Sequence record: MF327008
From: Shigella phage Sf24
Strand: one strand, 5' to 3'
Length of the DNA: 64,000 bases
Shown: positions 2,024 to 19,124 of the stretch, in pieces
Position numbering within the stretch: the stretch's first letter is position 1
Layout of the letters: each line of letters opens with the position of its first letter
Program-made: the position numbers and the translations under genes
The notes under the pieces: model-generated
Seen by the model: only the letters and a program-made list of their open reading frames with translations
Told to the model about the DNA's origin: nothing
The model's database searches: none

Positions 2024-2704
2024 TTATTTTAATGTTACGAAAGAAGAATTACGAGTTTCACGAATTAGAACTGATCCGTCGCGATTAATGTAATAAATTA
2101 AGCTAAATAATGTTTGGTGTGCAGAAGCATGCTCAAAACTAGTTGGGTGAGATTTCCAATCCGGAGTTTCAGCGATCCATTGATAAATCCACCAAGGAAC
2201 AGTACAGAATCCTGGATTTTTTCCAATCAACTGAAGATTCGGGCTAAAGTTTTCCGGAAGAGTAAATACAGACGGCTTTTCAGATTCAATAATCTCAGCT
2301 ACAGCCTGTTCGAATTTTTCTTCAACAAAAGGAGTATCTTCAATCAAAACATCGGTATTTTCAGGAATTTTATCCGTTTCTACTACTTCAATTTTAATGT
2401 CAGATTTAACTGGAGAATCAATCAAAAGTGCTGCTTCTGGATTGACTTCTTCATCGTCATATTTTAATCCCTCTGCAGCATCAGCAGCATCAATTAAGTC
2501 TTTAATAGATAACCCATCAGTCTCTGGCATAGGTTCACTAGCGAGCTTCTGGAGAGCTTCTTCAATATCAACAACGATATTATCAAAAGATTTATTCTTT
2601 TTGACCTTTATACCAAACTGTTCAGCATATTCAGCTAATTTAGCTTTAGCTTCTTTGTTATCATCAAGAGCCTTCAGCTCTGCAATATAATCTTTATCTA
2701 TCAT
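2024..2704 (-). CDS. inh: Inh-like prohead protease inhibitor
   Basis: 226 aa acidic protein between hoc and uvsW as in T4. Confidence 0.7.
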   Translation of the reverse strand: MIDKDYIAELKALDDNKEAKAKLAEYAEQFGIKVKKNKSFDNIVVDIEEALQKLASEPMPETDGLSIKDLIDAADAAEGLKYDDEEVNPEAALLIDSPVKSDIKIEVVETDKIPENTDVLIEDTPFVEEKFEQAVAEIIESEKPSVFTLPENFSPNLQLIGKNPGFCTVPWWIYQWIAETPDWKSHPTSFEHASAHQTLFSLIYYINRDGSVLIRETRNSSFVTLK

Positions 2705-2717
2705 AATATTTCCTCAG

Positions 2718-2725
2718 TATAAATA
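2718..2725 (+). promoter_or_regulatory. late promoter -10 element TATAAATA for uvsW
   Basis: Exact TATAAATA about 30 bp upstream of the uvsW ATG. Confidence 0.7.
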
Positions 2726-2754
2726 TAGATATATTTATTACATGGTATTTAGAC

Positions 2755-4266
2755 ATGACTGACATTAAAGTACATTTTTATGATTTTAGTCACGTGAGAA
2801 TTGATTGTGAAGAAAGTACATTTCATGAACTCCGTGATTTCTTTAGCTTTGAAGCTGATGGGTATCGTTTTAATCCGAAATACAAATATGGCCACTGGGA
2901 TGGACGAATCCGTCTTTTAGATTATAATCGTCTTCTTCCATTCGGCTTAGTCGGGCAAATTAAAAAGTTCTGTGATAACTTTGGCTATAAAGCCTGGATT
3001 GACCCGCAAATTAACGAAAAAGAAGAATTATCAAGAAAAGATTTTGATGAATGGCTTTCTAAATTAGAAATCTATTCAGGAAATAAAAGAATTGAACCAC
3101 ACTGGTATCAAAAAGATGCAGTGTTCGAAGGATTAGTTAATCGTCGTAGAATTCTTAATCTTCCAACATCCGCTGGTAAATCGTTAATTCAAGCTCTGCT
3201 TGCTCGGTATTATTTGGAAAATTATGAAGGTAAAATTCTTATCATTGTTCCAACAACTGCTCTGACAACTCAGATGGCTGATGACTTTGTTGACTATCGT
3301 TTATTCAGTCATGCAATGATAAAGAAAATTGGTGGCGGAGCATCAAAAGATGATAAATATAAAAATGATGCACCAGTCGTTGTTGGTACATGGCAAACTG
3401 TAGTAAAACAACCAAAAGAATGGTTCTCACAGTTTGGAATGATGATGAATGATGAATGCCATCTTGCTACAGGAAAAAGTATTTCATCTATCATATCAGG
3501 TTTAAATAACTGCATGTTCAAATTTGGTCTATCTGGTTCATTACGTGATGGCAAAGCCAATATCATGCAGTATGTTGGAATGTTTGGTGAAATATTTAAG
3601 CCAGTAACGACTTCTAAGTTAATGGAAGATGGACAAGTAACTGAGCTAAAAATTAATAGTATTTTTCTTCGCTATCCCGATGAGTTCACTACTAAATTAA
3701 AGGGAAAAACTTATCAAGAAGAAATAAAAATTATTACGGGGCTTAGTAAAAGAAATAAATGGATCGCTAAATTAGCTATTAAGCTTGCGCAAAAAGATGA
3801 AAACGCTTTTGTCATGTTTAAACATGTATCGCACGGTAAAGCTATTTTCGATTTAATTAAAAATGAATACGATAAAGTTTATTACGTATCAGGGGAAGTT
3901 GATACCGAAACACGCAATATAATGAAAACCTTAGCTGAAAATGGTAAAGGAATAATTATAGTAGCTAGTTATGGTGTATTTTCTACTGGTATTTCAGTTA
4001 AAAATCTGCATCACGTTGTTTTAGCGCACGGTGTTAAATCAAAAATCATTGTATTGCAAACAATCGGTCGTGTATTACGTAAGCATGGTTCTAAAACAAT
4101 CGCAACAGTCTGGGACCTCATAGATGATTGCGGTGTTAAGCCAAAATCTGCTAATACGAAAAAGAAATACGTTCATTTGAACTATCTTTTAAAACATGGC
4201 ATTGATCGTATTCAGCGCTACGCAGATGAAAAATTTAATTACGTAATGAAAACAGTTAATTTATAA
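2755..4266 (+). CDS. uvsW: UvsW RNA-DNA and DNA-DNA helicase (SF2)
   Basis: 503 aa; N-terminus MTDIKVHFYDFSHVRIDCEE..., Walker A-like TSAGKS and DECH box; late promoter upstream. Confidence 0.92.
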   Translation: MTDIKVHFYDFSHVRIDCEESTFHELRDFFSFEADGYRFNPKYKYGHWDGRIRLLDYNRLLPFGLVGQIKKFCDNFGYKAWIDPQINEKEELSRKDFDEWLSKLEIYSGNKRIEPHWYQKDAVFEGLVNRRRILNLPTSAGKSLIQALLARYYLENYEGKILIIVPTTALTTQMADDFVDYRLFSHAMIKKIGGGASKDDKYKNDAPVVVGTWQTVVKQPKEWFSQFGMMMNDECHLATGKSISSIISGLNNCMFKFGLSGSLRDGKANIMQYVGMFGEIFKPVTTSKLMEDGQVTELKINSIFLRYPDEFTTKLKGKTYQEEIKIITGLSKRNKWIAKLAIKLAQKDENAFVMFKHVSHGKAIFDLIKNEYDKVYYVSGEVDTETRNIMKTLAENGKGIIIVASYGVFSTGISVKNLHHVVLAHGVKSKIIVLQTIGRVLRKHGSKTIATVWDLIDDCGVKPKSANTKKKYVHLNYLLKHGIDRIQRYADEKFNYVMKTVNL

Positions 4267-4283
4267 GGGCTTCGGCCCTTTGG
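4267..4283 (+). terminator. hairpin between uvsW and uvsW.1
   Basis: GGGC-UUCG-GCCC then UUUGG; weak T-tract. Confidence 0.4.
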
Positions 4284-4291
4284 AGAAAAAG

Positions 4292-4522
4292 ATGTTACTA
4301 GAATTTAAACAATTTCTTTATGAAGCTTCTATTGATGAATTTATGGGTAAAATTGCCTCTTGTCAAACGATAGAAGGTCTAGAAGAACTTGAAGCTTATT
4401 ATAAGAAAAGAGTTAAAGAAACTGAATTAAAAGATACTGATGACATCTCTGTGAGAGATGCTTTGGCAGGAAAAAGAGCTGAATTAGAAGATTCAGACGA
4501 TGAAGTAGAAGAAAGCTTTTAA
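4292..4522 (+). CDS. uvsW.1: UvsW.1 small acidic protein
   Basis: 76 aa from the ATG at 4292 (the supplied ORF starts at a TTG at 4280); directly follows uvsW after a hairpin. Confidence 0.75.
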   Translation: MLLEFKQFLYEASIDEFMGKIASCQTIEGLEELEAYYKKRVKETELKDTDDISVRDALAGKRAELEDSDDEVEESF

Positions 4523-4576
4523 ATTAAAAAAGGCCCAACCAAAAGGAAGGGCCAAAACTATAGACTAAAGGTCACA

Positions 4577-4744
4577 CTATAGCAAAAGTTGTGTTTCATT
4601 TAATTGTTCTTCAGAACTTTCTGAAACTGGTAGTTCTTTAATGTAATTATAGCAAGGCCCAGGATGTACAGGACCTTTGTCTGTTTCAACAACCAATGCA
4701 GAATCGATTGGAGTTTTACAGACAACACAAATCTTATCTGACAT
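4577..4744 (-). CDS. small Cys-containing protein, 55 aa (uvsY.-2 position)
   Basis: Own translation MSDKICVVCKTPIDSALVVETDKGPVHPGPCYNY...; CxxC plus a later Cys; below the supplied ORF size cut-off. Confidence 0.45.
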   Translation of the reverse strand: MSDKICVVCKTPIDSALVVETDKGPVHPGPCYNYIKELPVSESSEEQLNETQLLL

Positions 4745-4769
4745 GATTGTCTCCTCTGAATTATATATC

Positions 4770-4777
4770 TATTTATA
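4770..4777 (-). promoter_or_regulatory. candidate late promoter TATAAATA (minus strand)
   Basis: Reverse complement of tatttata; 26 bp upstream of the small ORF start at 4744. Confidence 0.45.
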
Positions 4778-4867
4778 ACCCCATCTTAAAGCGCATTTCT
4801 TGTACACGCTTTAAACATGCTTCCATTTCTGCTAAAAGTCTAAATACTTCTTTATAATTTGTCATAT

Positions 4868-5095
4868 TTACCCCATATCTCTCATATGCATATCAATGCC
4901 CATATCTTTAGAATAAAAATATTCATCAAGATATCCGGCAAATTTTCCTTTAATATAAAGGACATCTTCACCGCATGGATGGTCAGCCAGGATACGAATA
5001 TCCTGACGCTTAAGATTATGCTTTTTCATTAAGAATTGAATTTCCGTTTCAAATTCTTCTTCATAATTAAAAGCATCATCAATGCTATATCTCAT
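4868..5095 (-). CDS. hypothetical protein, 75 aa (uvsY.-1 position)
   Basis: ORF whose stop overlaps the uvsY region (ATGA-type coupling). Confidence 0.6.
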   Translation of the reverse strand: MRYSIDDAFNYEEEFETEIQFLMKKHNLKRQDIRILADHPCGEDVLYIKGKFAGYLDEYFYSKDMGIDMHMRDMG

Positions 5096-5508
5096 TATTT
5101 TCCAGCCTCAAATGCTCGCATGTCTTGAATATGCTTAATAGCAAATCCACGTGATTTAATAGCATCAAGAGCTCCGCTACAGAAATCCAATAAAATCCCC
5201 CAATACTGCAACGAGGTATCAACCTTTAAAACATCCTTATCAGCTGATAGAACTGTCTTCATTTCTGATTTCTCGTAACGATCCATACTAAATTCATCAC
5301 CATCTCCTCGTCCCGAGTAGTAGTCTAATTTAGCTTTAAGAGCAACTTTTTTCTGTGCATCAATTCTAAGCATTTCCTTTTTAATACTTGAATGCTTATT
5401 AAGCCATTTACTATATAACATCACATTATTAGCTGCTTCATACTGTAATTTAGTCGAATCTATAAACACATCTTTCTTCAATTCTTCTTGAAGATCTTCT
5501 AATCTCAT
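5095..5508 (-). CDS. uvsY: UvsY recombination mediator protein
   Basis: 137 aa, same as T4 UvsY; sequence MRLEDLQEELKKDVFIDSTKLQYEAANNV...; MotA-box middle promoter upstream. Confidence 0.92.
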   Translation of the reverse strand: MRLEDLQEELKKDVFIDSTKLQYEAANNVMLYSKWLNKHSSIKKEMLRIDAQKKVALKAKLDYYSGRGDGDEFSMDRYEKSEMKTVLSADKDVLKVDTSLQYWGILLDFCSGALDAIKSRGFAIKHIQDMRAFEAGK

Positions 5509-5548
5509 ATTGTTCTCTATTCAATTGTTATTGGATGGACTTAGATTC

Positions 5549-5575
5549 ATTATACCACGTTTTAACGTGAAGCAT
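5549..5575 (-). promoter_or_regulatory. MotA-dependent middle promoter for uvsY
   Basis: Minus strand reads ATGCTTCA (MotA box), 13 bp spacer, TGGTATAAT (extended -10). Confidence 0.75.
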
Positions 5576-5973: not shown

Positions 5974-6599
5974 TACAATAGCTCAAAGAATTCTTTGAGT
6001 CCTCTTATTACATGAGCGTGAGTTTTTCCACACTCTGGACACTTAATTGGAACAGCCAAATAAACAGTAGGCTTTAAAAGCATATCTTTTATAGCTACAA
6101 TATCTGACTCTGTGATGATAGAATATAAATCTTCCAACTCTTTTTCATTTAAGTCTTCAATTGGAATGCTTTCACCGTTAGCATGAATCGTTTCTATACA
6201 TGATACTATCATGTGGGCTATATTTTTATCATCAAAAATTTTAGGGTAATGGAACTTAATTTTAATGTCACCCAGTGTATACCAGAGGTCTTCTGGTGCA
6301 TCTATTTGTGTATGTAATAGATTTATATGGGTTGGTATTTCAGTTCCACAGGTGCACTTCCAGGAGTTTTCGTGATTAACTTCACCAAGAGAATGTGCCC
6401 ATAAATGAATCAACAATAGTTCTGATTCTTGGCGGTTTAAATCTTTTGCATTTGTGCAGTCTTTGATTAGCTTTTTAACAATTACTTCTACGGAACCATT
6501 ATTTTTGGCAGTAATAAGTTCTAGATATTCTTTAAGCGTGAATGCGCGACAATTGATTATTTTAGAACCAACTCTCACATCAAATTTGTATTCATACAT
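5973..6599 (-). CDS. 26: baseplate hub subunit gp26
   Basis: 208 aa, T4 gp26 length; divergent from gene 51 across a shared late-promoter region. Confidence 0.88.
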
Positions 6600-6620
6600 A
6601 TTTAGCTCCTTTATTTATCA

Positions 6621-6632
6621 TATTTATAAATA
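6621..6632. promoter_or_regulatory. divergent late promoters for genes 26 and 51
   Basis: TATAAATA at 6625-6632 on plus and at 6621-6628 on minus, overlapping in a near-palindrome. Confidence 0.7.
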
Positions 6633-6649
6633 GAATAAAAGGAGCATCT

Positions 6650-7399
6650 ATGGCAAATATTATTCGTTGTAAATTACCAGATGGTGTTCATCGTTTTAAA
6701 CCATTTACGGTAGAAGATTATCGAGATTTTTTGTTAGTTCGAAACGATATAGAACATCGGTCACCACAAGAACAAAAAGAAATAATTGCTGATTTAATTG
6801 CTGATTATTTTGGAGACTATCCGAAGACTTGGCAACCATTTATATTTTTGCAGGTATTTGTAGGGTCAATAGGTAAAACTAAAGTACCAGTCACATTTGT
6901 GTGTCCAAAATGTAAAAAAGAAAAGACAGTTCCATTTGAAATATATCAAAAAGAATTAAAGGAACCTGTTTTTGATGTAGCTAATGTTAAAATTAAATTA
7001 AAGTTTCCTTCTGAGTTTTATGAAAATAAAGCAAAGATGATTACTGAAAATATTCATTCTGTTCAAGTAGATGAAACATGGTATGATTGGAAGGAAATTA
7101 GCGAATCAAGTCAAATAGAACTTGTTGATGCCATCGAGATAGAAACATTAGAAAAAATTCTCGATGCAATGAATCCTATTAATTTAACATTGCATATGTC
7201 ATGCTGTAATAAGTATGTAAAAAAATACACTGATATAGTAGATGTGTTTAAGCTATTAGTTAACCCAGATGAAATATTTACTTTTTATCAAATCAATCAC
7301 ACGCTCGTAAAAAGTAATTATAGCTTAAATTCAATAATGAAAATGATTCCTGCTGAGCGCGGATTCGTATTAAAACTGATTGAGAAGGATAAACAATAA
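6650..7399 (+). CDS. 51: baseplate hub assembly catalyst gp51
   Basis: 249 aa, T4 gp51 length; first gene of the plus-strand 51-27-28-29-48-54 cluster. Confidence 0.88.
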
Positions 7400-8574
7400 T
7401 GAGTATGTTGCAACGCCCAGGATATCCAAATCTCAGCGTTAAATTATTTGATAGCTACGACGCTTGGAGTAATAATAGATTTGTTGAATTAGCTGCTACT
7501 ATTACCACATTAACTATGCGGGATTCTCTTTATGGCCGAAATGAAGGAATGCTGCAGTTTTATGATTCTAAAAATATCCATACAAAAATGGATGGAAATG
7601 AAATAATTCAGATTTCTGTAGCTAATGCAAACGATATTAATAATGTTAAAACACGAATTTATGGATGTAAGCATTTTTCCGTGTCAGTAGATTCAAAGGG
7701 TGATAACATCATTGCTATTGAATTAGGAACTATTCATTCTATAGAAAATCTTAAATTTGGCAGACCGTTTTTCTCTGATGCAGGTGAATCTATAAAGGAA
7801 ATGCTTGGTGTCATTTATCAAGATCGCACATTATTAACTCCAGCAATAAATGCTATAAATGCTTATGTTCCTGATATTCCGTGGACTAGTACATTTGAAA
7901 ATTATTTATCCTATGTAAGAGAAGTTGCTCTAGCTGTAGGAAGTGACAAATTTGTATTTGTGTGGCAAGACATCATGGGAGTTAACATGATGGACTATGA
8001 TATGATGATAAATCAAGAACCATATCCAATGATTGTCGGCGAGCCATCTTTAATAGGTCAATTCATCCAAGAATTAAAATATCCATTAGCATATGATTTC
8101 GTTTGGTTGACTAAATCGAATCCTCACAAACGTGACCCAATGAAAAACGCTACTATCTATGCGCATTCGTTTTTGGATTCTTCATTGCCAATGATTACTA
8201 CGGGAAAGGGCGAAAACTCTATTGTAGTGTCAAGGTCAGGTGCTTATTCTGAAATGACTTATAGAAATGGATATGAAGAAGCTATTCGTCTTCAGACTAT
8301 GGCGCAGTATGATGGTTACGCTAAATGTTCTACTGTCGGTAATTTTAACTTGACTCCTGGCGTTAAAATTATTTTTAATGATAGTAAAAACCAATTTAAA
8401 ACAGAATTTTACGTTGATGAAGTCATCCATGAATTATCCAATAATAATTCAGTAACTCATCTATATATGTTCACTAATGCAACGAAACTGGAAATAATAG
8501 ACCCAGTTAAGGTTAAAAATGAATTTAAATCTGATACTACCACTGAAGAAAGTAGTTCTTCCAATAAGCAATAA
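7399..8574 (+). CDS. 27: baseplate hub subunit gp27
   Basis: 391 aa, T4 gp27 length; ATGA overlap with gene 51. Confidence 0.9.
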
Positions 8575-9052
8575 AGAAGTTTCTATTCCTAAAATGGGTC
8601 TTAAACACTATAACATTTTAAAAGATGTTAAAGGTCCTGATGAAAATTTAAAACTTCTTATTGATTCTATTTGTCCGAATTTATCACCGGCAGAAGTTGA
8701 TTTCGTTTCTATTCATCTATTGGAATTTAATGGAAAGATTAAATCTCGTAAAGAAATAGATGGTTATACTTATGACATTAATGATGTTTATGTATGCCAA
8801 AGATTGGAATTTCAATACCAAGGAAATACATTTTATTTTAGACCTCCTGGAAAATTTGAACAATTTTTAACTGTAAGCGATATGTTATCCAAATGCTTGC
8901 TTAAGGTCAATGATGAAGTTAAAGAAATTAATTTTCTTGAGATGCCAGCATTCGTTTTAAAATGGGCAAATGATATTTTTACAACTTTAGCAATTCCTGG
9001 CCCTAATGGTCCAATAACCGGAATTGGCAATATTATTGGATTATTTGAATGA
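8519..9052 (+). CDS. 28: baseplate hub distal subunit gp28
   Basis: 177 aa, T4 gp28 length; overlaps the 3' end of gene 27. Confidence 0.85.
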
Positions 9053-10821
9053 AAAAGCCACAAGAAATGCAAACGATGCGTAGAAAAGTTATTTCAGATA
9101 ATAAACCAACACAGGAAGCGGCTAAATCCGCTTCCAACACTTTATCTGGACTTAACGATATATCTACGAAATTGGATGATGCTCAAGCTGCCTCTGAATT
9201 AATTGCTCAAACTGTCGAAGAAAAATCGAATGAAATAATTGGTGCAATTGACAATGTAGAAAGCGCAGTGAGTGATACTACCGCAGGTTCTGAGTTAATT
9301 GCTGAAACTGTCGAAATTGGCAACAATATTAATAAAGAAATTGGCGAATCACTCGGGAGCAAATTAGATAAATTAACGAGTTTACTAGAGCAAAAAATCC
9401 AGACAGCCGGAATTCAACAAACAGGAACTAGTTTAGCTACGGTTGAAAGCGCTATTCCTGTTAAAGTTGTTGAGGACGATACAGCTGAATCTGTGGGTCC
9501 TTTATTACCGGCTCCTGAAGCAGTTAATAATGATCCTGATGCTGATTTTTTCCCTACCCCTCAGCCAGTTGAACCTAAACAAGAATCGCCAGAAGAAAAA
9601 CAGAAAAAAGACGCATTTAACTTAAAATTATCTCAAGCTTTAGATAAATTAACGAAGACTGTTGATTTTGGATTTAAAAAATCCATTTCAATTACTGATA
9701 AAATATCAAGCATGCTATTTAAGTACACCGTCAGTGCTGCTATTGAAGCTGCTAAAATGACTGCAATGATATTGGCTGTTGTTGTTGGAATAGACCTGTT
9801 GATGGTTCATTTTAAATACTGGTCAGATAAATTTTCAAAAGCCTGGGATTTATATAGTGGCAACTTTACTAAATTCTCTAGCGAAACTGGAACATGGGGT
9901 CCTTTATTACAGAGCATCTTTAGTTCTATTGATGAAATTAAAAAATTCTGGGAAGAGGGAGATTGGGGCGGTTTGACGGTAGCTATTGTAGAAGGGCTTG
10001 GAAAGGTTCTTTATAATTTAGGAGAACTTATTCAGCTTGGAATGGCTAAATTATCTGCTGCAATTCTTCGAGTCATTCCTGGCATGAAGGATACCGCTGA
10101 TGAAGTAGAAGGAAGAGCACTAGAAAATTTCCAAAATTCTACTGGAGCATCTCTCAATAAAGAAGACCAGGAAAAAGTTGCAAATTATCAAGATAAACGA
10201 ATGAACGGAGACCTTGGTCCGATAGCAAAAGGATTAGATAAAATTGCTAATTGGAAAACTCGTGCATCTAACTGGATTCGTGGCGTTGATAATAAAGAAG
10301 CATTGACAACCGATGAAGAACGCGCAGCAGAAGAAGAAAAATTAAAGCAACTTTCACCTGAAGAAAGAAAAAATGCTTTAATGAAGGCTAATGAAGCCCG
10401 TGCCGCGATGATTCGTTTTGAAAAATATGCTGATTCAGCTGATATGAGTAAAGACTCAACGGTTAAATCAGTTGAAGCTGCCTATGAAGACCTTAAAAAA
10501 CGGATGGATGACCCGGATTTAAATAATTCACCGGCAGTTAAAAAAGAACTTGCTGCTAGATTTTCTAAAATTGATGCTACTTATCAAGAGCTCAAGAAAA
10601 ATCAGCCTAATGCCAAACCTGAAACTTCTGCTAAATCGCCAGAAGCAAAACAAGTCCAGGTAATAGAAAAGAACAAAGCACAGCAAGCTCCTGTTCAACA
10701 AGCATCTCCTTCGATCAATAATACTAATAATGTTATTAAGAAAAATACTGTCGTTCATAATATGACACCCGTAACGAGCACGACTGCTCCTGGTGTATTT
10801 GATGCGACTGGAGTTAATTAA
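9049..10821 (+). CDS. 29: baseplate hub subunit / tail length determinator gp29
   Basis: 590 aa, T4 gp29 length; extended low-complexity regions. Confidence 0.88.
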   Translation: MKKPQEMQTMRRKVISDNKPTQEAAKSASNTLSGLNDISTKLDDAQAASELIAQTVEEKSNEIIGAIDNVESAVSDTTAGSELIAETVEIGNNINKEIGESLGSKLDKLTSLLEQKIQTAGIQQTGTSLATVESAIPVKVVEDDTAESVGPLLPAPEAVNNDPDADFFPTPQPVEPKQESPEEKQKKDAFNLKLSQALDKLTKTVDFGFKKSISITDKISSMLFKYTVSAAIEAAKMTAMILAVVVGIDLLMVHFKYWSDKFSKAWDLYSGNFTKFSSETGTWGPLLQSIFSSIDEIKKFWEEGDWGGLTVAIVEGLGKVLYNLGELIQLGMAKLSAAILRVIPGMKDTADEVEGRALENFQNSTGASLNKEDQEKVANYQDKRMNGDLGPIAKGLDKIANWKTRASNWIRGVDNKEALTTDEERAAEEEKLKQLSPEERKNALMKANEARAAMIRFEKYADSADMSKDSTVKSVEAAYEDLKKRMDDPDLNNSPAVKKELAARFSKIDATYQELKKNQPNAKPETSAKSPEAKQVQVIEKNKAQQAPVQQASPSINNTNNVIKKNTVVHNMTPVTSTTAPGVFDATGVN

Positions 10822-10829
10822 GGAATAAT

Positions 10830-11924
10830 ATGGCAATTGTTAAAGAAATAACTGCTGATTTAATTAAAAAGTCCGGTGAGAAAATTTCAGCCGGACAGAG
10901 TACTAAATCAGAAGTAGCAACTAAAACATACACTGCCCAGTTTCCAACTGGGCGTGCTAGTGGTAATGACACTACAGGGGACTTCCAGGTAACAGATCTA
11001 TATAAGAATGGATTATTATTTACTGCATACAATATGTCATCTAGGGATTCTGGAAGTCTTAGATCGATGAGATCTAACTACTCTTCTTCATCTTCGAGTA
11101 TTTTAAGTACAGCTAGAAACACTATTAGTAGTACAGTATCAAAACTATCAAATGGATTAATATCAAACAATAATTCAGGAACAATAAGTAAAGCTCCTGT
11201 CGCAAACATTCTTTTACCGAGATCTAAATCTGACGTTGATACATCATCACATAGATTTAATGATGTTCAAGAAAGTCTTATCAGCAGAGGCGGAGGTACT
11301 GCTACTGGTGTGTTAAGTAATATTGCTTCAACTGCAGTATTTGGGGCACTGGAAAGTATAACACAAGGTATAATGGCTGATAATAATGAACAGATTTATA
11401 CGACAGCTAGAAGTATGTATGGCGGTGCTGAGAATAGAACTAAAGTGTTTACATGGGATTTGACTCCACGTTCAACAGAAGATTTGATGGCTATTATCAA
11501 TATCTATCAATATTTTAACTATTTTTCTTATGGTGAAACAGGCAAATCTCAATATGCTGCTGAAATAAAGGGGTATTTGGATGATTGGTATCGTTCTACG
11601 TTAATTGAACCTTTATCTCCGGAAGACGCAGCTAAAAATAAAACACTATTTGAGAAAATGACATCGAGTTTAACTAACGTTCTAGTAGTTTCAAACCCGA
11701 CAATTTGGATGGTGAAAAACTTTGGTGCAACATCTAAGTTTGATGGAAAAACGGAAATATTTGGTCCATGCCAAATACAGAGCATCAGATTTGATAAAAC
11801 ACCTAATGGTAACTTTAACGGATTAGCTATTGCTCCAAACCTCCCTAGTACATTTACTCTTGAGATTACTATGAGAGAAATTATCACGTTAAACCGTGCT
11901 TCTTTATATGCGGGGACTTTTTAA
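10830..11924 (+). CDS. 48: baseplate tail tube cap gp48
   Basis: 364 aa, T4 gp48 length; gene order. Confidence 0.88.
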   Translation: MAIVKEITADLIKKSGEKISAGQSTKSEVATKTYTAQFPTGRASGNDTTGDFQVTDLYKNGLLFTAYNMSSRDSGSLRSMRSNYSSSSSSILSTARNTISSTVSKLSNGLISNNNSGTISKAPVANILLPRSKSDVDTSSHRFNDVQESLISRGGGTATGVLSNIASTAVFGALESITQGIMADNNEQIYTTARSMYGGAENRTKVFTWDLTPRSTEDLMAIINIYQYFNYFSYGETGKSQYAAEIKGYLDDWYRSTLIEPLSPEDAAKNKTLFEKMTSSLTNVLVVSNPTIWMVKNFGATSKFDGKTEIFGPCQIQSIRFDKTPNGNFNGLAIAPNLPSTFTLEITMREIITLNRASLYAGTF

Positions 11925-12889
11925 TGTATTCTTTAGAGGAATTTAATAATCAAGCAATAAACGCAGATTTCCAACGTAATAATATGTTTAGCTGTGTTTT
12001 TGCGACAACTCCATCAACTAAAAGCTCTTCGTTGATAAATTCAATTAGCAACTTTTCTTATAATAACTTGGGTCTAAATTCAGACTGGTTAGGATTGTCT
12101 CAAGGCGATATTAATCAGGGAATTACCACGCTAATTACTGCTGGCACACAAAAACTGATAAGAAAATCAGGGGTTAGTAAATATCTTATTGGTGCCATGA
12201 GTCAACGTACAGTTCAAAGTTTATTGGGCTCATTTACAGTTGGTACATATTTAATTGACTTCTTTAATATGGCATATAATTCATCTGGATTGATGATATA
12301 CTCTGTAAAAATGCCAGAGAATAGATTATCCTATGAAACTGACTGGAATTATAACTCTCCTAATATTCGTATAACTGGGAGAGAATTGGACCCTTTGGTT
12401 ATTTCATTTAGAATGGATTCAGAAGCTTGTAACTATCGTGCGATGCAAGACTGGGTTAACTCCGTTCAAGACCCAGTAACTGGATTACGCGCTTTGCCAC
12501 AGGATGTCGAGGCAGATATTCAGGTTAATCTTCATTCTCGTAATGGATTGCCTCATACTGCGGTGATGTTCACTGGATGCATTCCAATATCAGTGAGCGC
12601 TCCTGAGTTATCATATGATGGAGATAACCAAATAACTACATTTGACGTTACTTTTGCGTATAGAGTGATGCAGGCTGGAGCAGTTGATAGGCAAGCTGCG
12701 CTTGAATGGCTTGAATCTGCTGCTATAAATGGTATTCAAAGCGTTCTCGGAAATAGTGGAGGTGTTACTGGACTATCTAATTCGCTTTCACGACTCAGTA
12801 GATTAGGGGGAACTGCAGGAAGCATTTCAAACATTAATACTATGACAGGAATTGTCAATTCGCAAAGTAAAATATTAGGAGCAATATAA
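11924..12889 (+). CDS. 54: baseplate tail tube initiator gp54
   Basis: 321 aa; overlaps gene 48 stop; followed by a strong hairpin terminator. Confidence 0.88.
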   Translation: MYSLEEFNNQAINADFQRNNMFSCVFATTPSTKSSSLINSISNFSYNNLGLNSDWLGLSQGDINQGITTLITAGTQKLIRKSGVSKYLIGAMSQRTVQSLLGSFTVGTYLIDFFNMAYNSSGLMIYSVKMPENRLSYETDWNYNSPNIRITGRELDPLVISFRMDSEACNYRAMQDWVNSVQDPVTGLRALPQDVEADIQVNLHSRNGLPHTAVMFTGCIPISVSAPELSYDGDNQITTFDVTFAYRVMQAGAVDRQAALEWLESAAINGIQSVLGNSGGVTGLSNSLSRLSRLGGTAGSISNINTMTGIVNSQSKILGAI

Positions 12890-12893
12890 CAAT

Positions 12894-12923
12894 GGGGACC
12901 TTTCGGTCCCCATATTTTTATTT
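12894..12923 (+). terminator. rho-independent terminator after gene 54
   Basis: GGGGACC-UUUC-GGUCCCC hairpin followed by AUAUUUUUAUUU. Confidence 0.7.
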
Positions 12924-13208
12924 ACGGAATGAAATAAAAGCAGCAACTGAAGCAACTAAACTGTCTTCAATATAAACCTCAATTTTTACCGGAGCTTCTG
13001 ACTCAAATTTACCTGTTACTACACCTTGGAAAATACTTTCAGTCTGTTCTGGCTTTGAAAAATTTTCAGAAGGAAAAATTCCGAACTTTTTATCTGTTCC
13101 AAAAATTTTGATAAATTCATCGTAAACTGCTTCATTAAAAGCATTATCAGCAGGAATAACGCCTTCAACTACAAGTTCTTGACCTAAAAAGCGCAAAGAA
13201 GATTTCAT
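12918..13208 (-). CDS. hypothetical early protein, 96 aa (alt.-3 position)
   Basis: ORF with GAGG Shine-Dalgarno and an early-promoter repeat immediately upstream. Confidence 0.6.
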   Translation of the reverse strand: MKSSLRFLGQELVVEGVIPADNAFNEAVYDEFIKIFGTDKKFGIFPSENFSKPEQTESIFQGVVTGKFESEAPVKIEVYIEDSLVASVAAFISFRK

Positions 13209-13239
13209 TTTGTGTTCCTCATGTTATGTCAGTAAGATT

Positions 13240-13269
13240 ACTATAACACAACACGAGGGACTTGTAAAC
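13240..13269 (-). promoter_or_regulatory. early promoter (GTTTAC -35, TATAGT -10)
   Basis: Minus strand GTTTAC-N14-GTG-T-TATAGT; part of a 53 bp repeat also found at 28499-28551. Confidence 0.65.
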
Positions 13270-15326
13270 TACATTTTGAACTTTTTAGACATTCCGTTGA
13301 TGTTAACCAAAGAAGCTAAGATTTGAGAAACTTCGTTTTCCTCTTCTTTTGATTCTTCTACAAGGAATTGATTAAATCCAGCCATTGGACGAACTTCACC
13401 AGTTTCCATCAAATGATCGCCATCATATACTGATTCTTCTAATTGCTCAGAAGGAGGAACGATTGTGCCTTCGATTAGATACTTATTATAAGCAGTTTCT
13501 TTCATCATGTACGTGCTCACTTTATTAATCTTCAGTAAAATTCCACGTGGTAGAATAACTTCAGCTTCTGATGGAAATCCTGATAAATGACCTGGAACGA
13601 TAACTTTGATTCGCTCAGCCCCTTTAATTACCATACCTACGCTAGTTTCAGCGTCTTCATTCGCATAAGCAGAGTGACTACCCATATGCATTAAATCTTC
13701 AGCATCAACTGAACCTTCTCCTTCGCCAGAAAATACTGCGCCGGAATCATCTAGAGCCATATAGTTTTTACCATGCTCACCGAAGATATTTGGTTTAAGC
13801 GATGTGGATACGAAGTTCTTGAAATAGAACATTTTATTTTCAATATTATGACGTAAAGTTTTAAAAGTAACTTCTTGTCCACGATAAAGCGTAGTTCCTG
13901 GAGGAAGAACTGAACCTTTAGCGAATGCAGAATCCATTGTCTCGATGTGTTTAATAGCTCGTTCCATGTATTCTTCACGGGTAGAATCTGGTTTACCCAA
14001 GAGGAACGAGTTCATTTCAACATATGAATCTGCACAATAATCTTCAATTACATCAGACTCAGCCTGAGTTAATCCTTTTGGAGTTACTTCGGTGCTTGCG
14101 TATTCATATGCCTGAGCAGCAGATTCATTAATCAATTTATAAATGCTATTCATGACAAATTGAATAATAGCTGTCTTTTCATCTGACGTAGCTTTAGAAC
14201 CTTTAACTAAATCATTGATAATTTTCTTAATAACATCAAAGCTATTAGAAATATTAATGTCAGCGAGATCGCTCAAAATTTTATCGGTTTTATAATCAAA
14301 AAATTCTTTATTCTTTAAATATTCTTGAGAACCTTGATATGTTATATCGCTCTGCAGTCTGATAGACGGATCACGTAAACGCGCATGGGCCAATGCAATA
14401 TGATTTCGGAAGCTTTCTAGTTCATAATCGTTAGATTTAAAACGAGAAGCACTTCTCATACCACCGATAGCTCCTTTGCTGAAGTTGGAACCAATCTGAA
14501 TAACACCAGAGTTCATTGGTCCTTCTGCTTTATATACAGGAACTTTAGATTCAAACTCTTGATATTTCTTGGCAGCGAAGCTATCACCCTGAAGTGAAGC
14601 ATCAACAGTAGAATATTGAGCTTGTGCTGCTAATCGACGACTAATTTTAGTTTTCTGAATAACAGCTTGATCCGTACGCTTATCATTTTCTAAAGCAATA
14701 GAAGCAGCAACTGCGACAGCTTTAGGAACAGCATTACCTGTTTTAACGTCTACATAAACATCACCAACCTTTGATTCAACTTTTGTGAATAACTCAGCTG
14801 AAATAGGAGGTACACCTGGAATGTCTTCTAAATTGGCATTTTTACGGTAAACCATAATATATGCGTACTTTTTATCATAGTCCCAGATTTCCTTTAAAAG
14901 AACATATCGGCCTGCTCCTTTAGTACGTACTAAACGGTCAGCAATAACTTGCATTTGACGAGCAGCGCCATTTGTTTTACTCTTTAGTACGCGGAATAAG
15001 CATGCATCAATTTTATACTGTTTCATTGTTTGAAGAGCAGTATCAAAAACAGCATTAATGGCGCCAATTGGATTTCCACCCAAGTTTTTAAGTTTAACTA
15101 ATGATAGTTTCTCATTGACACCTATCATTACGATATGCATCATTTTGTCGCCTGGCTTAACGTTTTTATTCGTATCACCGCCAGAGGTGTATGTACAAAA
15201 TCTAAATCCAGGAAGCACGCTTTCTTCACCGGCTTGAATAGCAAAAATTTGTGGTATTTTATGCTTAGGATTTAAGTTAACAACCGGCGCCGAAGCGCCG
15301 TCAAATAATTCTGTAATAAGTTCCAT
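13269..15326 (-). CDS. Alt-like ADP-ribosyltransferase paralog, 685 aa
   Basis: Shares N-terminus (MELITELFD...LNPK.KIPQIF) and domain order with the adjacent alt; R-S-E triad elements YRG, FVSTSL and SEAEVILPRG. Confidence 0.85.
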   Translation of the reverse strand: MELITELFDGASAPVVNLNPKHKIPQIFAIQAGEESVLPGFRFCTYTSGGDTNKNVKPGDKMMHIVMIGVNEKLSLVKLKNLGGNPIGAINAVFDTALQTMKQYKIDACLFRVLKSKTNGAARQMQVIADRLVRTKGAGRYVLLKEIWDYDKKYAYIMVYRKNANLEDIPGVPPISAELFTKVESKVGDVYVDVKTGNAVPKAVAVAASIALENDKRTDQAVIQKTKISRRLAAQAQYSTVDASLQGDSFAAKKYQEFESKVPVYKAEGPMNSGVIQIGSNFSKGAIGGMRSASRFKSNDYELESFRNHIALAHARLRDPSIRLQSDITYQGSQEYLKNKEFFDYKTDKILSDLADINISNSFDVIKKIINDLVKGSKATSDEKTAIIQFVMNSIYKLINESAAQAYEYASTEVTPKGLTQAESDVIEDYCADSYVEMNSFLLGKPDSTREEYMERAIKHIETMDSAFAKGSVLPPGTTLYRGQEVTFKTLRHNIENKMFYFKNFVSTSLKPNIFGEHGKNYMALDDSGAVFSGEGEGSVDAEDLMHMGSHSAYANEDAETSVGMVIKGAERIKVIVPGHLSGFPSEAEVILPRGILLKINKVSTYMMKETAYNKYLIEGTIVPPSEQLEESVYDGDHLMETGEVRPMAGFNQFLVEESKEEENEVSQILASLVNINGMSKKFKM

Positions 15327-15329
15327 GAT

Positions 15330-17426
15330 TTATCCTTGAACGAACTTGTAAGGCATGTTTGTAATATCTATGCAAGATGCAATAATTCCAAGAGATGATT
15401 CTACTTTTTGTTTAACATTTGATGAAACAAATGATGCAAAGTCAACTCTGTCTTCTATTTCAATATCACCTGTCATTGCAACTACTTCGCCGGTTTCCAT
15501 TAAATGGTCTCCATCATAGATTACCGATTCGGTGAGCTCTTCCGTGGTCATAACTTCAGCTTGAATGAGTTTTGTATTATTAGACGTGGTTCCGTCATTA
15601 TTAGAAGCATCAGTTATTTTATTAACTTTGACCATCAATCCGCGCGGTAGAATAACTTCAGCTTCTGTTGCTATTCCGAGACTTCCTGGATATACAACAT
15701 TAACTTTATGAGCTCCATCAATTGCCCATCCTATTTGAACTTTAACGTATTCAGGATTTTCTTTATACGCTCTTATTTCGTTTGGATTAATAGTTATTCC
15801 TTCTTCATTTTTATCAACTGTCAATTCATTACGAGCTTCTGGTTCTAAAAGACCAATACCAGCATGCGTAATTCCAAAACGTCCAAAAATGATAGGAGTT
15901 AAAGAAGTAGATACAAAATTTCTGAAATAGAATACTTTATTTTTAACTAATGCTTCGTATATAGGAGCAGTCATGCTTTGAGCACGATAAACTGTGATGC
16001 CTTCCGGTATGCGGTCACCATTTTCAAAAGCTGAATCTAAGTTATTTATAGCAGATTCAATTTCTTTTTCACTCATTACATCATATCGTTCTGGATTGTA
16101 ACGACCTAAAAGAAGATTATTGATGTCAGTATATCCTGAACCGCAATATTCTCTAATGCCACGCTTTTGTGATGGAGTATATTTAGAACCATCGCGGGCA
16201 ATAGTAATATCAATCATTGGACCAGCACCAATTCCAGAAAAACTGTAAATCATTCGTTTGAGGAATTTAGTTTTTGCTGCGTTCCAGGAATTTTTAGTTA
16301 TTTCTTCCCAGACTTCATCTGATTGTCCTTTACGATTTTTATTATGATTAGCAAGCCATTTATCTTTATAATCTTCAAAGAATTGATTTACAGCTGCTGC
16401 GTATTTCTCTAAACATTTTATTGAAGTAGTTGGTTCATTTTTAATTGCATTAAAAATTACTTCTTTAATTTTTTCTGAAACTTCACCGACTTGACTCATT
16501 GGAAAGAATTTATAATCATAGTGAAGTTCATCTGCCGTTCCTTCGGCAATAATTTTTGCTGCCTTAGTTTTAGAAGCTAATGAATTAATTCCAAGCTTCA
16601 TTTCTTCTGCTTCGGGAATTAAAGGTGCAGTAGCTGGTTTATTAAAATTAGCTGCTGTAGATTCATACTTCTGGAATAATTCACTTTCAAATCTAGAAGA
16701 TTCCAATGACTGACTTTGTGCAATTGCTCTACGGGAAATTTTAACTTTAACGATTACAGCTTGGTCAGAACGTTTATCGTTTTCTTGTGCAATAGATGCT
16801 GCAATTGCCTCATTTTTAGTTACTTGAGCTCCAGTATCTTTATTGATATAAACATCGCCAACTTTCGATTCAACTTTAGTAAAGAGCTCGGTACTAATTT
16901 CCGGAACTCCTGGAATGTCTTCTAGCGATACATTTTTGCGATGTATAAGAATATATGCATACTTTTTATCATAATCCCAGAGTTCCTTAAGAAGGACGTA
17001 TCTGCCACCTGAACGACTACGGATAAGTCTATCAGCAATAACTTGAATTTGTCGAGCTTGACCAGCGGTTTTAGACTTAAGAATACGAAGCATACAAGCA
17101 TCAATTTTATACTGACGCATTGTTTGCATTGCAACAGTAAAAACTGAATTGATATAATTAATTGGGCTTGGACCAAGACCTTTTAATTTAGCAATTGAAC
17201 CTTTAGCAGTTAATGTAAAAGGAACAATATGCATCATTTTATCGCCCATTTTTAAATCGCGATTAGTATCACCTCCAGATGTATAGGTACACAAACGAAA
17301 GCCTGGTTGTTCAATTGCGTCATCAACATGAACTGAAAAAATTTGCGGTATTTTCTTCTTTGGATTTAAGTTTGTAATCGGAAGAGTAGTATCTTCGTCA
17401 AATAATTCTGTAATGAGTTCCATCAT
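15330..17426 (-). CDS. alt: Alt ADP-ribosyltransferase (injected internal head protein)
   Basis: 698 aa; closest to remembered T4 Alt; ART elements VYRAQS, FVSTSL, TEAEVILPRG; late TATAAATA promoter upstream. Confidence 0.88.
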   Translation of the reverse strand: MMELITELFDEDTTLPITNLNPKKKIPQIFSVHVDDAIEQPGFRLCTYTSGGDTNRDLKMGDKMMHIVPFTLTAKGSIAKLKGLGPSPINYINSVFTVAMQTMRQYKIDACMLRILKSKTAGQARQIQVIADRLIRSRSGGRYVLLKELWDYDKKYAYILIHRKNVSLEDIPGVPEISTELFTKVESKVGDVYINKDTGAQVTKNEAIAASIAQENDKRSDQAVIVKVKISRRAIAQSQSLESSRFESELFQKYESTAANFNKPATAPLIPEAEEMKLGINSLASKTKAAKIIAEGTADELHYDYKFFPMSQVGEVSEKIKEVIFNAIKNEPTTSIKCLEKYAAAVNQFFEDYKDKWLANHNKNRKGQSDEVWEEITKNSWNAAKTKFLKRMIYSFSGIGAGPMIDITIARDGSKYTPSQKRGIREYCGSGYTDINNLLLGRYNPERYDVMSEKEIESAINNLDSAFENGDRIPEGITVYRAQSMTAPIYEALVKNKVFYFRNFVSTSLTPIIFGRFGITHAGIGLLEPEARNELTVDKNEEGITINPNEIRAYKENPEYVKVQIGWAIDGAHKVNVVYPGSLGIATEAEVILPRGLMVKVNKITDASNNDGTTSNNTKLIQAEVMTTEELTESVIYDGDHLMETGEVVAMTGDIEIEDRVDFASFVSSNVKQKVESSLGIIASCIDITNMPYKFVQG

Positions 17427-17447
17427 ATCCTCTCTAGTGTTTATTCT

Positions 17448-17455
17448 ATTTATAA
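17448..17455 (-). promoter_or_regulatory. late promoter TATAAATA for alt
   Basis: Reverse complement of tatttata, 22 bp upstream of the alt ATG. Confidence 0.6.
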
Positions 17456-17475
17456 AATTAAAGGCCCGAAGGCCT
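17451..17475 (-). terminator. hairpin terminator between the ligase operon and alt
   Basis: AGGCC-CGAA-GGCCU hairpin with A/T-rich tract on the minus strand. Confidence 0.45.
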
Positions 17476-17664
17476 TTAATAATCTATTGGTAAGAGAGTA
17501 CGATATATTTCAAACTTTGGACCTTTTTCATAGGCATCAAATGTTTCTGTGAATTTATTATAAGCATATGCATCTATAAATTCAATCATAATTTGTGATA
17601 CAGAAGTAGAAACATCTCCACCTTCTTTTTGAGCCACGACAATTGTTTCTAAGTAAGCTTTCAT
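17476..17664 (-). CDS. hypothetical protein, 62 aa
   Basis: ORF directly downstream of and overlapping the DNA ligase stop; hairpin at its 3' end. Confidence 0.5.
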   Translation of the reverse strand: MKAYLETIVVAQKEGGDVSTSVSQIMIEFIDAYAYNKFTETFDAYEKGPKFEIYRTLLPIDY

Positions 17665-19124
17665 AGACCAGTTACCTCATGAAAATCACCAAATACATCC
17701 TCGAATGTATTAGCTTTAGTTTTATCTTCACGTAAACGAATCGCAATCGGAAGAAATAATTTAACGTAATCGGTGCGGCCATCAGATTTTAACCAACCAT
17801 TGCATTCGCACTCTAGAATTTTTCCAATATAATAATTTTGGTTTTCCATAATGCGAGTACGGTCAAGTTCATGCGATTTTACACCGGCTTTATCTTTTAA
17901 GCCTGAACCAGCATTTACTTTAATTTTTCCACACTCTGATTCAAGAATAAATCCACCCGCTTTAGTAGGGTCTTTACGGTGAGGATAAATTCCTACAATT
18001 TTTAAATCAACATCAATTACTTCTTTAAATTTATAAAGATTTTTTGAACGAGCATTTTCCCATAATCCATCGATATTTTTGAGAATAATACCTTCAAGAC
18101 CTTGGTCAATATACTTTTTATAAATTACCTTAGCTTCATCTATGTTATTTACTACCTGGTTTTCAATTAAAATTACTTTATCATATCCTGATGTCATTTG
18201 TTCTAGTTTAGAAAAACGTACATCATATTTTAAACGAAACGCCGGAAGACCGTATATTTCTACCAACGGGACATAATCCCAAACCTGAAACTTCATGCAT
18301 TGAGCTTCTTTTTCAGAAATGGTTCCTTTTAAGGATTTATTGGCGATTCCATTAGAAGTAGTACGAGATTCCGCTACTTCGGCGAATTCTTTAGCTTTAC
18401 TAATTTCAGGATAAGCATCAAAAAGAAAATCTAGGCCTTCTGGTTCCTTTTTAACTTGCTCATGGTATACCAATTCGCCATCAATTAACACACCTTCTGG
18501 ATGAATCTGGCGGGCTTCAGCAGTCATTTTGATTAACTCTTCCTTAAGAAGATCTAATCCTAGATATTCATTACCAGCTCGTGATAAAAGACGAACATCA
18601 TCTAATTCATCGCCTCGGACTTCAGCAAAACACCGGGCTCCATCTGCTTTTAACTGCGCAAAGGCTGGAAACTTGATATTCTTACTAATGCCCTTTTCAT
18701 CATAAGAACTTGCCAGCATTTGAGGTTGTTCAGGAATTAAACCTGGCCAAACTTTGTTTGCAATAGATACTGAAGCACCGCATTCAAGGTCTCGCATCAT
18801 CACTCGACGCAAAACTTCAACATCATCCTTTTTACCATCAGTGATATATCCAGTTAATTCCTCAATTGCAGCATTTCCAGTCAATTTCCGAGTAGCTAAC
18901 GTGAATTCAATGAAATCAAGCATATCGGTAATGGTCAGCATTCCAAAACTCTGGGTAGCAATACCAGGTTTAGGCCATTTCTTGATATAATACTGTAACC
19001 CACGAGAATAAGTCAGACGATATACTCGTTTAAGCAATTCATTATCTTTATTCTTTTCAAGAATTGCTTGCTTCTGCTTAGTTGATCCAATAGATGCTAT
19101 TTCATTCAGAATTTTAAGAATCAT
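17661..19124 (-). CDS. 30: ATP-dependent DNA ligase gp30
   Basis: 487 aa, T4 ligase length; ligase-type lysine motif QLKADGARC. Confidence 0.92.
   Translation of the reverse strand: MILKILNEIASIGSTKQKQAILEKNKDNELLKRVYRLTYSRGLQYYIKKWPKPGIATQSFGMLTITDMLDFIEFTLATRKLTGNAAIEELTGYITDGKKDDVEVLRRVMMRDLECGASVSIANKVWPGLIPEQPQMLASSYDEKGISKNIKFPAFAQLKADGARCFAEVRGDELDDVRLLSRAGNEYLGLDLLKEELIKMTAEARQIHPEGVLIDGELVYHEQVKKEPEGLDFLFDAYPEISKAKEFAEVAESRTTSNGIANKSLKGTISEKEAQCMKFQVWDYVPLVEIYGLPAFRLKYDVRFSKLEQMTSGYDKVILIENQVVNNIDEAKVIYKKYIDQGLEGIILKNIDGLWENARSKNLYKFKEVIDVDLKIVGIYPHRKDPTKAGGFILESECGKIKVNAGSGLKDKAGVKSHELDRTRIMENQNYYIGKILECECNGWLKSDGRTDYVKLFLPIAIRLREDKTKANTFEDVFGDFHEVTGL

Follow-up and report, generated by a model that had tools for sequence, protein, structure and literature searches.

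Is the second of two tandem alt genes in a T-even phage a second enzyme delivered into the host, or is it a spare, inactive or differently deployed copy of the first? The question is raised by Shigella phage Sf24 (sequence record MF327008), of which a stretch of 64,000 nucleotides (nt), hereafter the window, was analyzed. Its 12.9–19.1 kb region is the alt locus of a T4-like phage of the genus Tequatrovirus (T-even), and it holds two intact genes for ADP-ribosyltransferases (ART) of the Alt family, here called alt1 and alt2. We consider it likely that the locus is a late-transcribed two-gene array of ancient Alt paralogs, packaged in the phage head and passed by injection into host cells as mono-ADP-ribosyltransferases. 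Judging from the sequence, Alt2 is most likely a second packaged and injected arginine ADP-ribosyltransferase. The genes and the sites needed to follow the argument are the following.

Positions 15330-17426, minus strand: alt1, a maximal open reading frame (ORF) of 698 residues, the T2-type allele of T4 alt.
Positions 13269-15326, minus strand: alt2, 685 residues, the second Alt paralog and the intact counterpart of T4 alt.-1 plus alt.-2.
Positions 15324-15337, minus strand: the alt1-alt2 junction, AAGGA-TAA-ATC-ATG, read from the sequence.
Positions 13289-14978, minus strand: a 1,690-bp part of alt2 absent from T4, as found when the window was compared with T4 by blastn and alignment.

The initial annotation of this DNA described two head-to-tail genes of 698 and 685 residues, and the ORF listing agrees exactly with those sizes and positions. 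The 4-bp separation that it reported is, on the other hand, a spacer of 3 nt (ATC), lying between the alt1 stop codon TAA (15332-15330) and the alt2 ATG (15326-15324), and the two genes share a reading frame. In T2 and DalCa, the sequence of this junction is the same. Hypothetical readthrough of the alt1 stop would produce an Alt1-Alt2 fusion of ~1,383 residues.

The two genes and the remnant of alt2 in T4

The first gene, alt1, is orthologous to T4 alt and represents the T2-type allele, with a product that is 97–99% identical to T2 alt (X69893) and to ~290 other records. Compared with T4 Alt, the identity is 72% overall, being 98–100% over residues 1-250, ~95% in the C-terminal tail, 65% in the ART domain and 33% in the centre. 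At the DNA level, the centre of alt1 (window 16188-16616, ~430 bp) has no detectable similarity to T4 alt, and the flanks of this segment are 96% identical on the N-terminal side and 79% on the other. There are at least two alt1 alleles in the genus, the T2-type being found in ~319 records and the T4-type inside the 60–80% identity band of 212 records.

The second gene, alt2, is the intact form of a gene that T4 keeps as a frameshifted and deleted stump, alt.-1/alt.-2. T4 alt.-1 (NP_049810) corresponds to Alt2 residues 1 to ~55 and alt.-2 (NP_049809) to residues 63 to ~118, with ~95% DNA identity. In the blastn search and alignment, positions 5105-5455 of the T4 stretch used for comparison (L001) align to window 14979-15330 with a single 1-nt gap, and positions 2630-5113 align to window 10800-13288 at 97% identity, the segment in between being the one listed above. 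The 1-nt deletion, located in an A-run, produces the frameshift that splits alt.-1 from alt.-2, and the large deletion ends in a 9-bp repeat, CTAAA(G/A)AGT, which occurs once in codons 116-118 of alt2 and once at its final codons. The T4 annotation labels the stump 'an old duplication of the first part of alt'; contrary to this label, the alignments show that it is a truncated full-length paralog. By the same annotation T4 has just one intact alt gene, as stated in the initial annotation, and the comparisons proposed there with T4 Alt, alt.-1 and alt.-2 give, besides the 72% of Alt1, 41% identity of Alt2 to T4 Alt and the correspondence of the stump to Alt2 described above.

How common is the intact pair? 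[quoted passage not shown] By tblastn, Alt2 has a full-length match of at least 80% identity in 401 phage records, of which 390 lie at 95–99%. A 181-nt probe over the T4 deletion junction matches contiguously in only 91 of 498 records, the others giving a split match; the 91 T4-type records include T4 re-sequencings and also natural isolates, among them JEP6, SG1, slur03 and LH2. Taken together, the three counts indicate that both genes are intact in about four out of five Tequatrovirus-like records, and that T4 is an outlier by virtue of its deletion. T2 (PV958097) and T6 (MH550421) both have a pair of 697 and 685 residues, and in the T6 record the second gene is described as 'apparent insertion in alt.-2; also similar to alt'.

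The pair has also been mentioned in the literature. Nolan et al. (2006) described alt.-1/alt.-2 as paralogous duplications of alt and reported that phage 44RR has a duplicate of alt in full length (PMC1524935), and a 2026 paper on a Tequatrovirus describes a pair of Alt-like paralogs that are 43.29% identical, with the same interpretation of functional divergence (PMC13600099). Annotated in GenBank and mentioned in these two papers, the tandem Alt pair is already known and is the ordinary T-even state. The notion of an unusual arrangement, from which the initial annotation started, has to be abandoned, as both paralogs are intact and standard among T-even phages (401 records, T2, T6), the very case that it had named as a refutation.

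Divergence, catalytic residues and paralog classes

Alt1 and Alt2 are 41% identical over their full length, and the E-value of the match (2e-163, BLASTP) shows that the resemblance is not due to chance. The identity is unevenly distributed along the chain: a sliding comparison gives 59–76% over residues 1-245 and 8–21% over residues ~246-424, which by region amounts to 68% in the N-terminal module, 16% in the centre and 34% in the ART domain. The shared N-terminal segment (MELITELFD...KIPQIF) seen in the initial annotation is thus real. The divergence of the centre, placed there at residues ~230-450, is real as well, but it is not restricted to this region, since the 40-residue loop that links the STS motif to ExE is only ~6% identical and the C-terminal tail 36–40%. 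The stretch just before ExE reads GHLSGFPSEAE in Alt2 and GSLGIATEAE in Alt1, and it corresponds to the ARTT loop of the C3-like enzymes.

Both proteins are recognized as ADP-ribosyltransferases in profile searches. They score above the curated cut-off (23.4 bits) of the Pfam family PF03496 ADPrib_exo_Tox, Alt1 with 129.8 and Alt2 with 73.4 bits, and they match phrog_802, 'Alt-like RNA polymerase ADP-ribosyltransferase', from end to end (E = 5e-273 and 1e-255, respectively). NCBIfam gave no match for either protein, and a search of the PDB with the Alt2 sequence returned nothing at E ≤ 1. Among 1.84 billion representative proteins, no relative of the Alt2 centre (residues 236-420) was detected outside the Alt family; the only match at E ≤ 0.001 is itself Alt-like, and the centre therefore yields no functional clue.

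As far as the sequences tell, Alt1 and Alt2 each possess a complete R / S-T-S / E-x-E set in the right order, formed by YR482, S507-T-S509 and E587-A-E589 in Alt2 and by R480, S505-T-S and E587-A-E589 in Alt1 (697-residue numbering). In a 21-sequence family alignment, spanning 42–95% identity to Alt2, residues R482, S507, S509, E587 and E589 are invariant. The C-terminal R-S-E core attributed to both proteins at the outset is therefore present, and the 685-residue protein retains an intact catalytic triad (R482, S507, E587/E589). The ExE motif is no more than a predictor of arginine specificity. In the case of T4 Alt, a change designated 'E577A' abolishes ADP-ribosylation (PMC11404850). When NC_000866 is translated, E574 and E576 are the two glutamates of ExE and position 577 is occupied by valine; the published position is presumably the second ExE glutamate, with a numbering that is off by one.

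The AlphaFold2 model of Alt2 (pLDDT 76.5, pTM 0.69) comprises an alpha/beta N-terminal domain (residues ~11-200), a helical centre (~200-470), the C-terminal ART domain and a disordered tail from residue 630. As modelled, Alt2 has the complete Vis/C3-like ART fold and would belong to that fold family. Comparison of alt2 with its orthologs in T2, DalCa and vB_SsoM_113 (Sso113) gives a synonymous divergence (dS) of 0.13–0.21, a nonsynonymous divergence (dN) of 0.003–0.009 and a dN/dS ratio of 0.02–0.05. The dN is low in all four modules, the ART domain being as low as elsewhere, and alt2 is under strong purifying selection. The possibility that alt2 is a decaying pseudogene was considered and rejected, given the intact ORF, the low dN/dS ratio and the invariant catalytic residues.

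Alternatively, Alt2 could have lost its catalytic activity and be a structural component of the head core, a pseudoenzyme retained for packaging or as part of the scaffold. Alt has indeed been described as a core protein besides being an enzyme (PMC11404850), and the lower Pfam score of Alt2 would fit a loss of function. The invariance of the five catalytic residues across the family, the constraint on the ART domain, equal to that on the rest of the protein, and the complete fold of the model are, however, hard to reconcile with a dead enzyme, and we find this explanation barely credible. These results also refine the proposal, made in the initial annotation, of a diversified injected effector. 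With its catalytic set intact and both prohead-protease motifs in place (see below), Alt2 may reasonably be regarded as a putative injected effector with other targets; it is not, however, diversifying at present, as it is the more conserved of the two copies, with 390 records at 95–99% identity and the dN/dS values given above.

The duplication is old, because class-matched copies of both genes exist in phage fDHCT2 (OR427838.1; stretch L006, positions 6001-12261). This phage has three tandem in-frame alt genes, of 694, 681 and 707 residues, with 3-nt spacers, whose products (alt_3, alt_2, alt_1) resemble those of IME08 and JS10, and the pattern CAAGG(A/G)TAAAT(N)ATGGAA of the window junction recurs at both of its junctions. 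The first gene, a3, matches Alt1 in the centre (66%) and in the ART domain (95%), with N-terminal modules that are only 44% identical, and the last one, a1, matches Alt2 (centre 45%, ART domain 58%). Thus, the centre and the ART domain group by paralog class across genera, whereas the N-terminal modules group by genome (67–88% identity within fDHCT2, 68% within the window and 41–44% between the two). This grouping points either to an exchange of cassettes between genera or to concerted evolution among the N-terminal modules. In phage vB_EcoM_SCS4 (ON506924.1; stretch L004, positions 3501-5561), the alt locus contains a single chimeric gene of 686 residues, which is 100% identical to window Alt1 from residue 1 to ~150 and 96–100% identical to Alt2 in the remainder. 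The chimera is what unequal recombination between the two neighbouring paralogs would be expected to yield, and it points to interchangeable N-terminal modules in Alt1 and Alt2.

The existence of conserved classes bears directly on the idea that Alt2 is a redundant dosage copy, packaged and active on the same host targets as Alt1 (RNA polymerase alpha and others). Such a copy would account for the common architecture, processing motifs and catalytic residues of the two proteins, for the apparent co-transcription of their genes, and for the fact that T4 thrives without Alt2. It would not account for ART domains that are only 34% identical, nor for the values of 16% and ~6% in the central regions and in the STS-ExE loop, and orthologs of each class have been kept across genera (Alt2 with a1 and Alt1 with a3 of fDHCT2). 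Furthermore, both copies are under purifying selection in ~400 genomes, which is not expected of pure redundancy. We therefore regard a dosage copy as unlikely. That distinct classes have been retained for long under purifying selection speaks against simple redundancy; that Alt1 and Alt2 may act on different targets is suggested by the essentially unrelated helical centres and STS-ExE loops and by the distance between the ART domains.

A more far-reaching proposal is that the alt locus is a modular array of effector cassettes, in which Alt2 is a distinct injected effector, possibly with an anti-defence role. A genome-specific N-terminal packaging module would stay similar among the copies within one phage, and centre-plus-ART cassettes, belonging to at least three or four old classes, would be swapped between genera and gained or lost by unequal recombination. 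We put this forward only tentatively; if true, the textbook picture derived from T4 under-reports what typical T-even phages inject.

Expression signals, predicted prohead processing and proposed injection

The position of the locus is that of the T4 Alt family, extending from gene 30/alt.1 to alt.-3/gene 54 behind a late promoter. The elements around the two alt genes are the following.

Positions 17661-19124, minus strand: DNA ligase gene 30.
Positions 17476-17664, minus strand: alt.1, 62 residues, between DNA ligase gene 30 and alt1 (T4 annotation).
Positions 17460-17477, minus strand: GC-rich hairpin AAAGGCCTTCGGGCCTTT, directly past the alt.1 stop codon, read from the sequence.
Positions 17447-17454, minus strand: TATAAATA, the T4 late-promoter consensus, which lies 24 nt upstream of the probable start codon of alt1.
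Positions 13240-13269, minus strand: early-promoter-like site (GTTTACA, 17 nt, TATAGT), a consensus match only.
Positions 12918-13208, minus strand: alt.-3, 96 residues, DUF5498, the downstream neighbour (T4 annotation).
Positions 12892-12913: bidirectional terminator downstream of alt.-3, with the converging baseplate genes 54 and 48 beyond it.

The late-promoter consensus TATAAATA is found at the matching place in T2, DalCa and T4, and it occurs only 6 times on the minus strand of the 64-kb window. From the established T4 consensus, we infer that the copy upstream of alt1 is a late promoter. A second copy, at 16043-16050 on the coding strand of alt1 (nt 1374 of the gene and ~720 nt upstream of alt2), is shared by T2 but not by the T4-type allele and is likely to be incidental. 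The alt1 ORF opens with ATG ATG, preceded by the Shine-Dalgarno sequence GAGAGGA (17434-17428) at a distance of 1 nt from the first and 4 nt from the second ATG, and in T2, T4 and T6 alt is annotated from the second (MELITE...). As both the spacing and these annotations favour the second ATG, at 17423, alt1 probably starts there and encodes 697 residues, so that the 698 residues of the initial annotation hold for the maximal ORF but likely not for the protein.

For alt2, a Shine-Dalgarno sequence, AAGGA, is contained within the last alt1 codons, six nt before the ATG, and inspection of the sequence at the alt1-alt2 junction revealed no promoter for this gene. Given the late promoter before alt1, the lack of one at the junction and the ribosome-binding site of alt2, the simplest reading is that the two genes would be co-transcribed, with independent or coupled translation.

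On the upstream side, the hairpin AAAGGCCTTCGGGCCTTT is a probable terminator ending the upstream early unit. It is kept in T2, DalCa and T4, and the equivalent DalCa site is annotated as a rho-independent terminator; a simple terminator scan raised no flag at 17460-17477. The product of alt.1 shows a full-length match to the Pfam family PF24647 'Phage blade protein' (E = 7.5e-29, profile search). On the downstream side, the early-promoter-like site overlaps the alt2 stop codon and extends past it, ahead of alt.-3, and in T4 the reading frame of the alt.-2 stump runs through this sequence. The alt.-3 product matches the Pfam family PF17602 (E = 1.4e-64) and is not an ADP-ribosyltransferase; C-terminal extensions of T4 Alt.-3 have been reported to lead to escape from the CmdTAC defence system (PMC11618068).

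T4 Alt is a protein of the prohead core, present in ~40 copies and trimmed by the gp21 protease (PMC9958956). Mass spectrometry has located the cuts at ITE-6 and LTE-619, resulting in a protein of 68.2 kDa (PMC5694885), a mass that we could reproduce from the T4 Alt sequence with these two cuts. Both Alt1 and Alt2 start with MELITE|L, that is, with the ITE6 motif, and the motif aligned with T4 LTE619|SV is ELTE632|SV in Alt1 and QLEE631|SV in Alt2, both of which fit the L-x-E rule as regards the presence of the motif. The predicted mature masses are 70.1 kDa for Alt1 and 69.1 kDa for Alt2, and the confidence of the Alt2 model falls from residue 630 onwards, precisely where the C-terminal cut is predicted.

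A different C-terminal protease site, YDGDHLME|TGE, was also considered and was dropped, since the published mass spectrometry assigns the cleavage to LTE-619, which lies seven residues upstream (PMC5694885); with this cut, the invariant YDGD motif falls within the removed propeptide. The motif, YDGDxLMETGE, spans window 13401-13433 (residues 632-642 of Alt2) and the stretch of alt1 aligned with it, and it is near-invariant in every Alt paralog examined, across genera, with H, R, A or V at position 5. In T4 Alt it sits in the C-terminal propeptide removed by gp21, a region modelled as disordered. It might serve in docking to the scaffold core or in holding the enzyme inactive.

These motifs are relevant to a further explanation, in which Alt2 is active without being injected, being made late and acting only in the producing cell, in the way of ModA and ModB, which are reported to be active only after their synthesis in the infected cell and not to be injected (PMC5512222). 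Expression from a late promoter would permit such an action. Nevertheless, Alt2 keeps the full N-terminal module, 68% identical to that of Alt1, together with the MELITE propeptide, the C-terminal L-x-E site and the conserved tail, features that in T4 Alt accompany incorporation into the prohead and processing by gp21 (PMC5694885, PMC9958956). The SCS4 chimera, which joins the 150 N-terminal residues of Alt1 to the body of Alt2, points in the same direction by indicating that the modules can be exchanged. An Alt2 restricted to the producing cell is, in our opinion, very unlikely.

We thus favour packaging and injection of both enzymes and propose the following sequence of events. Both genes would be transcribed from the late promoter upstream of alt1, with translation of alt2 starting at a separate ribosome-binding site within the last codons of alt1. 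The precursors, of ~76–78 kDa, would enter the prohead core, where gp21 would trim them after ITE6 and after the L-x-E motif at 631 or 632, leaving mature proteins of ~69–70 kDa. Injected with the DNA, Alt1 and Alt2 would then use NAD+ to ADP-ribosylate arginines of host proteins, each on its own set of targets.

Several points weigh against this proposal. The L/I-x-E protease motif is short and is found elsewhere in both Alt proteins, and the Pfam score of Alt2 is below that of Alt1 (73 versus 130 bits). Literature searches gave no experimental study of Alt2, be it on its presence in the virion, its cleavage, its injection or its activity, with nothing of relevance in PMC7917993 or PMC12373910, and the difference in targets is inferred only from sequence divergence. 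In addition, the junction probe identifies T4 and 90 other records without Alt2, which is therefore dispensable at least on some hosts. On the supporting side, according to a 2025 preprint, evasion of type I Mokosh requires T4 Alt and is not restored by the Bas37 Alt variant (10.1101/2025.11.20.689424). Alt sequence variants can thus differ in function, although the preprint does not address the second paralog.

Nearly all that is known about injected phage ADP-ribosyltransferases comes from T4, which belongs to the ~18% minority of the genus that lacks the second enzyme. Conserved and apparently functional in T2, T6 and ~400 other records, Alt2 is a candidate injected effector that could help to explain phage-specific differences in host takeover or in the evasion of host defences. 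As a genome feature the pair is ordinary, and its value resides in providing a clear experimental lead rather than a discovery.

Relation to known systems

T4 Alt (gpAlt, NP_049811; 682 residues) has the same locus, late promoter and gp21 motifs as window Alt1, is ~100% identical to it over residues 1-235, the N-terminal module, and shares with both window proteins a four-part architecture, consisting of the N-terminal module, the helical centre, the R-S-ExE ART domain and the C-terminal propeptide; window Alt2, however, is only 41% identical to it overall. The closest known counterparts of alt2 are the full-length 'alt.-2' genes of T2, T6 and RB32, which are the same gene. Those of T2 and T6 encode 685 residues, as in the window, and the T2 copy is 98% identical to window Alt2. 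The three-gene arrays of the IME08/JS10 type occupy the same locus as the window pair, but they include an extra class, a2, that is absent from the window, and their N-terminal modules are genus-specific.

Outside the phages, the sequence identity to the Vis toxin (4xzj), to the C3 exoenzymes and to the A components of binary toxins of the Certhrax, VIP2 and iota-like types is only 14–26%. In contrast to these toxins, the Alts carry a phage-specific N-terminal module and a helical centre, with no homologs detected outside the Alt family, as well as an insertion of 40–60 residues between the STS and ExE motifs. Within T4 itself, ModA and ModB are proteins of ~200 residues without a packaging module, unlike Alt1 and Alt2, which have an N-terminal extension of 420 residues and propeptides. 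Despite these differences, ModA, ModB and the Alts fall into a common R-S-E clade of phage mono-ADP-ribosyltransferases, which comprises the Alt/VIP2 and Mod enzymes (PMC5512222, PMC9503650).

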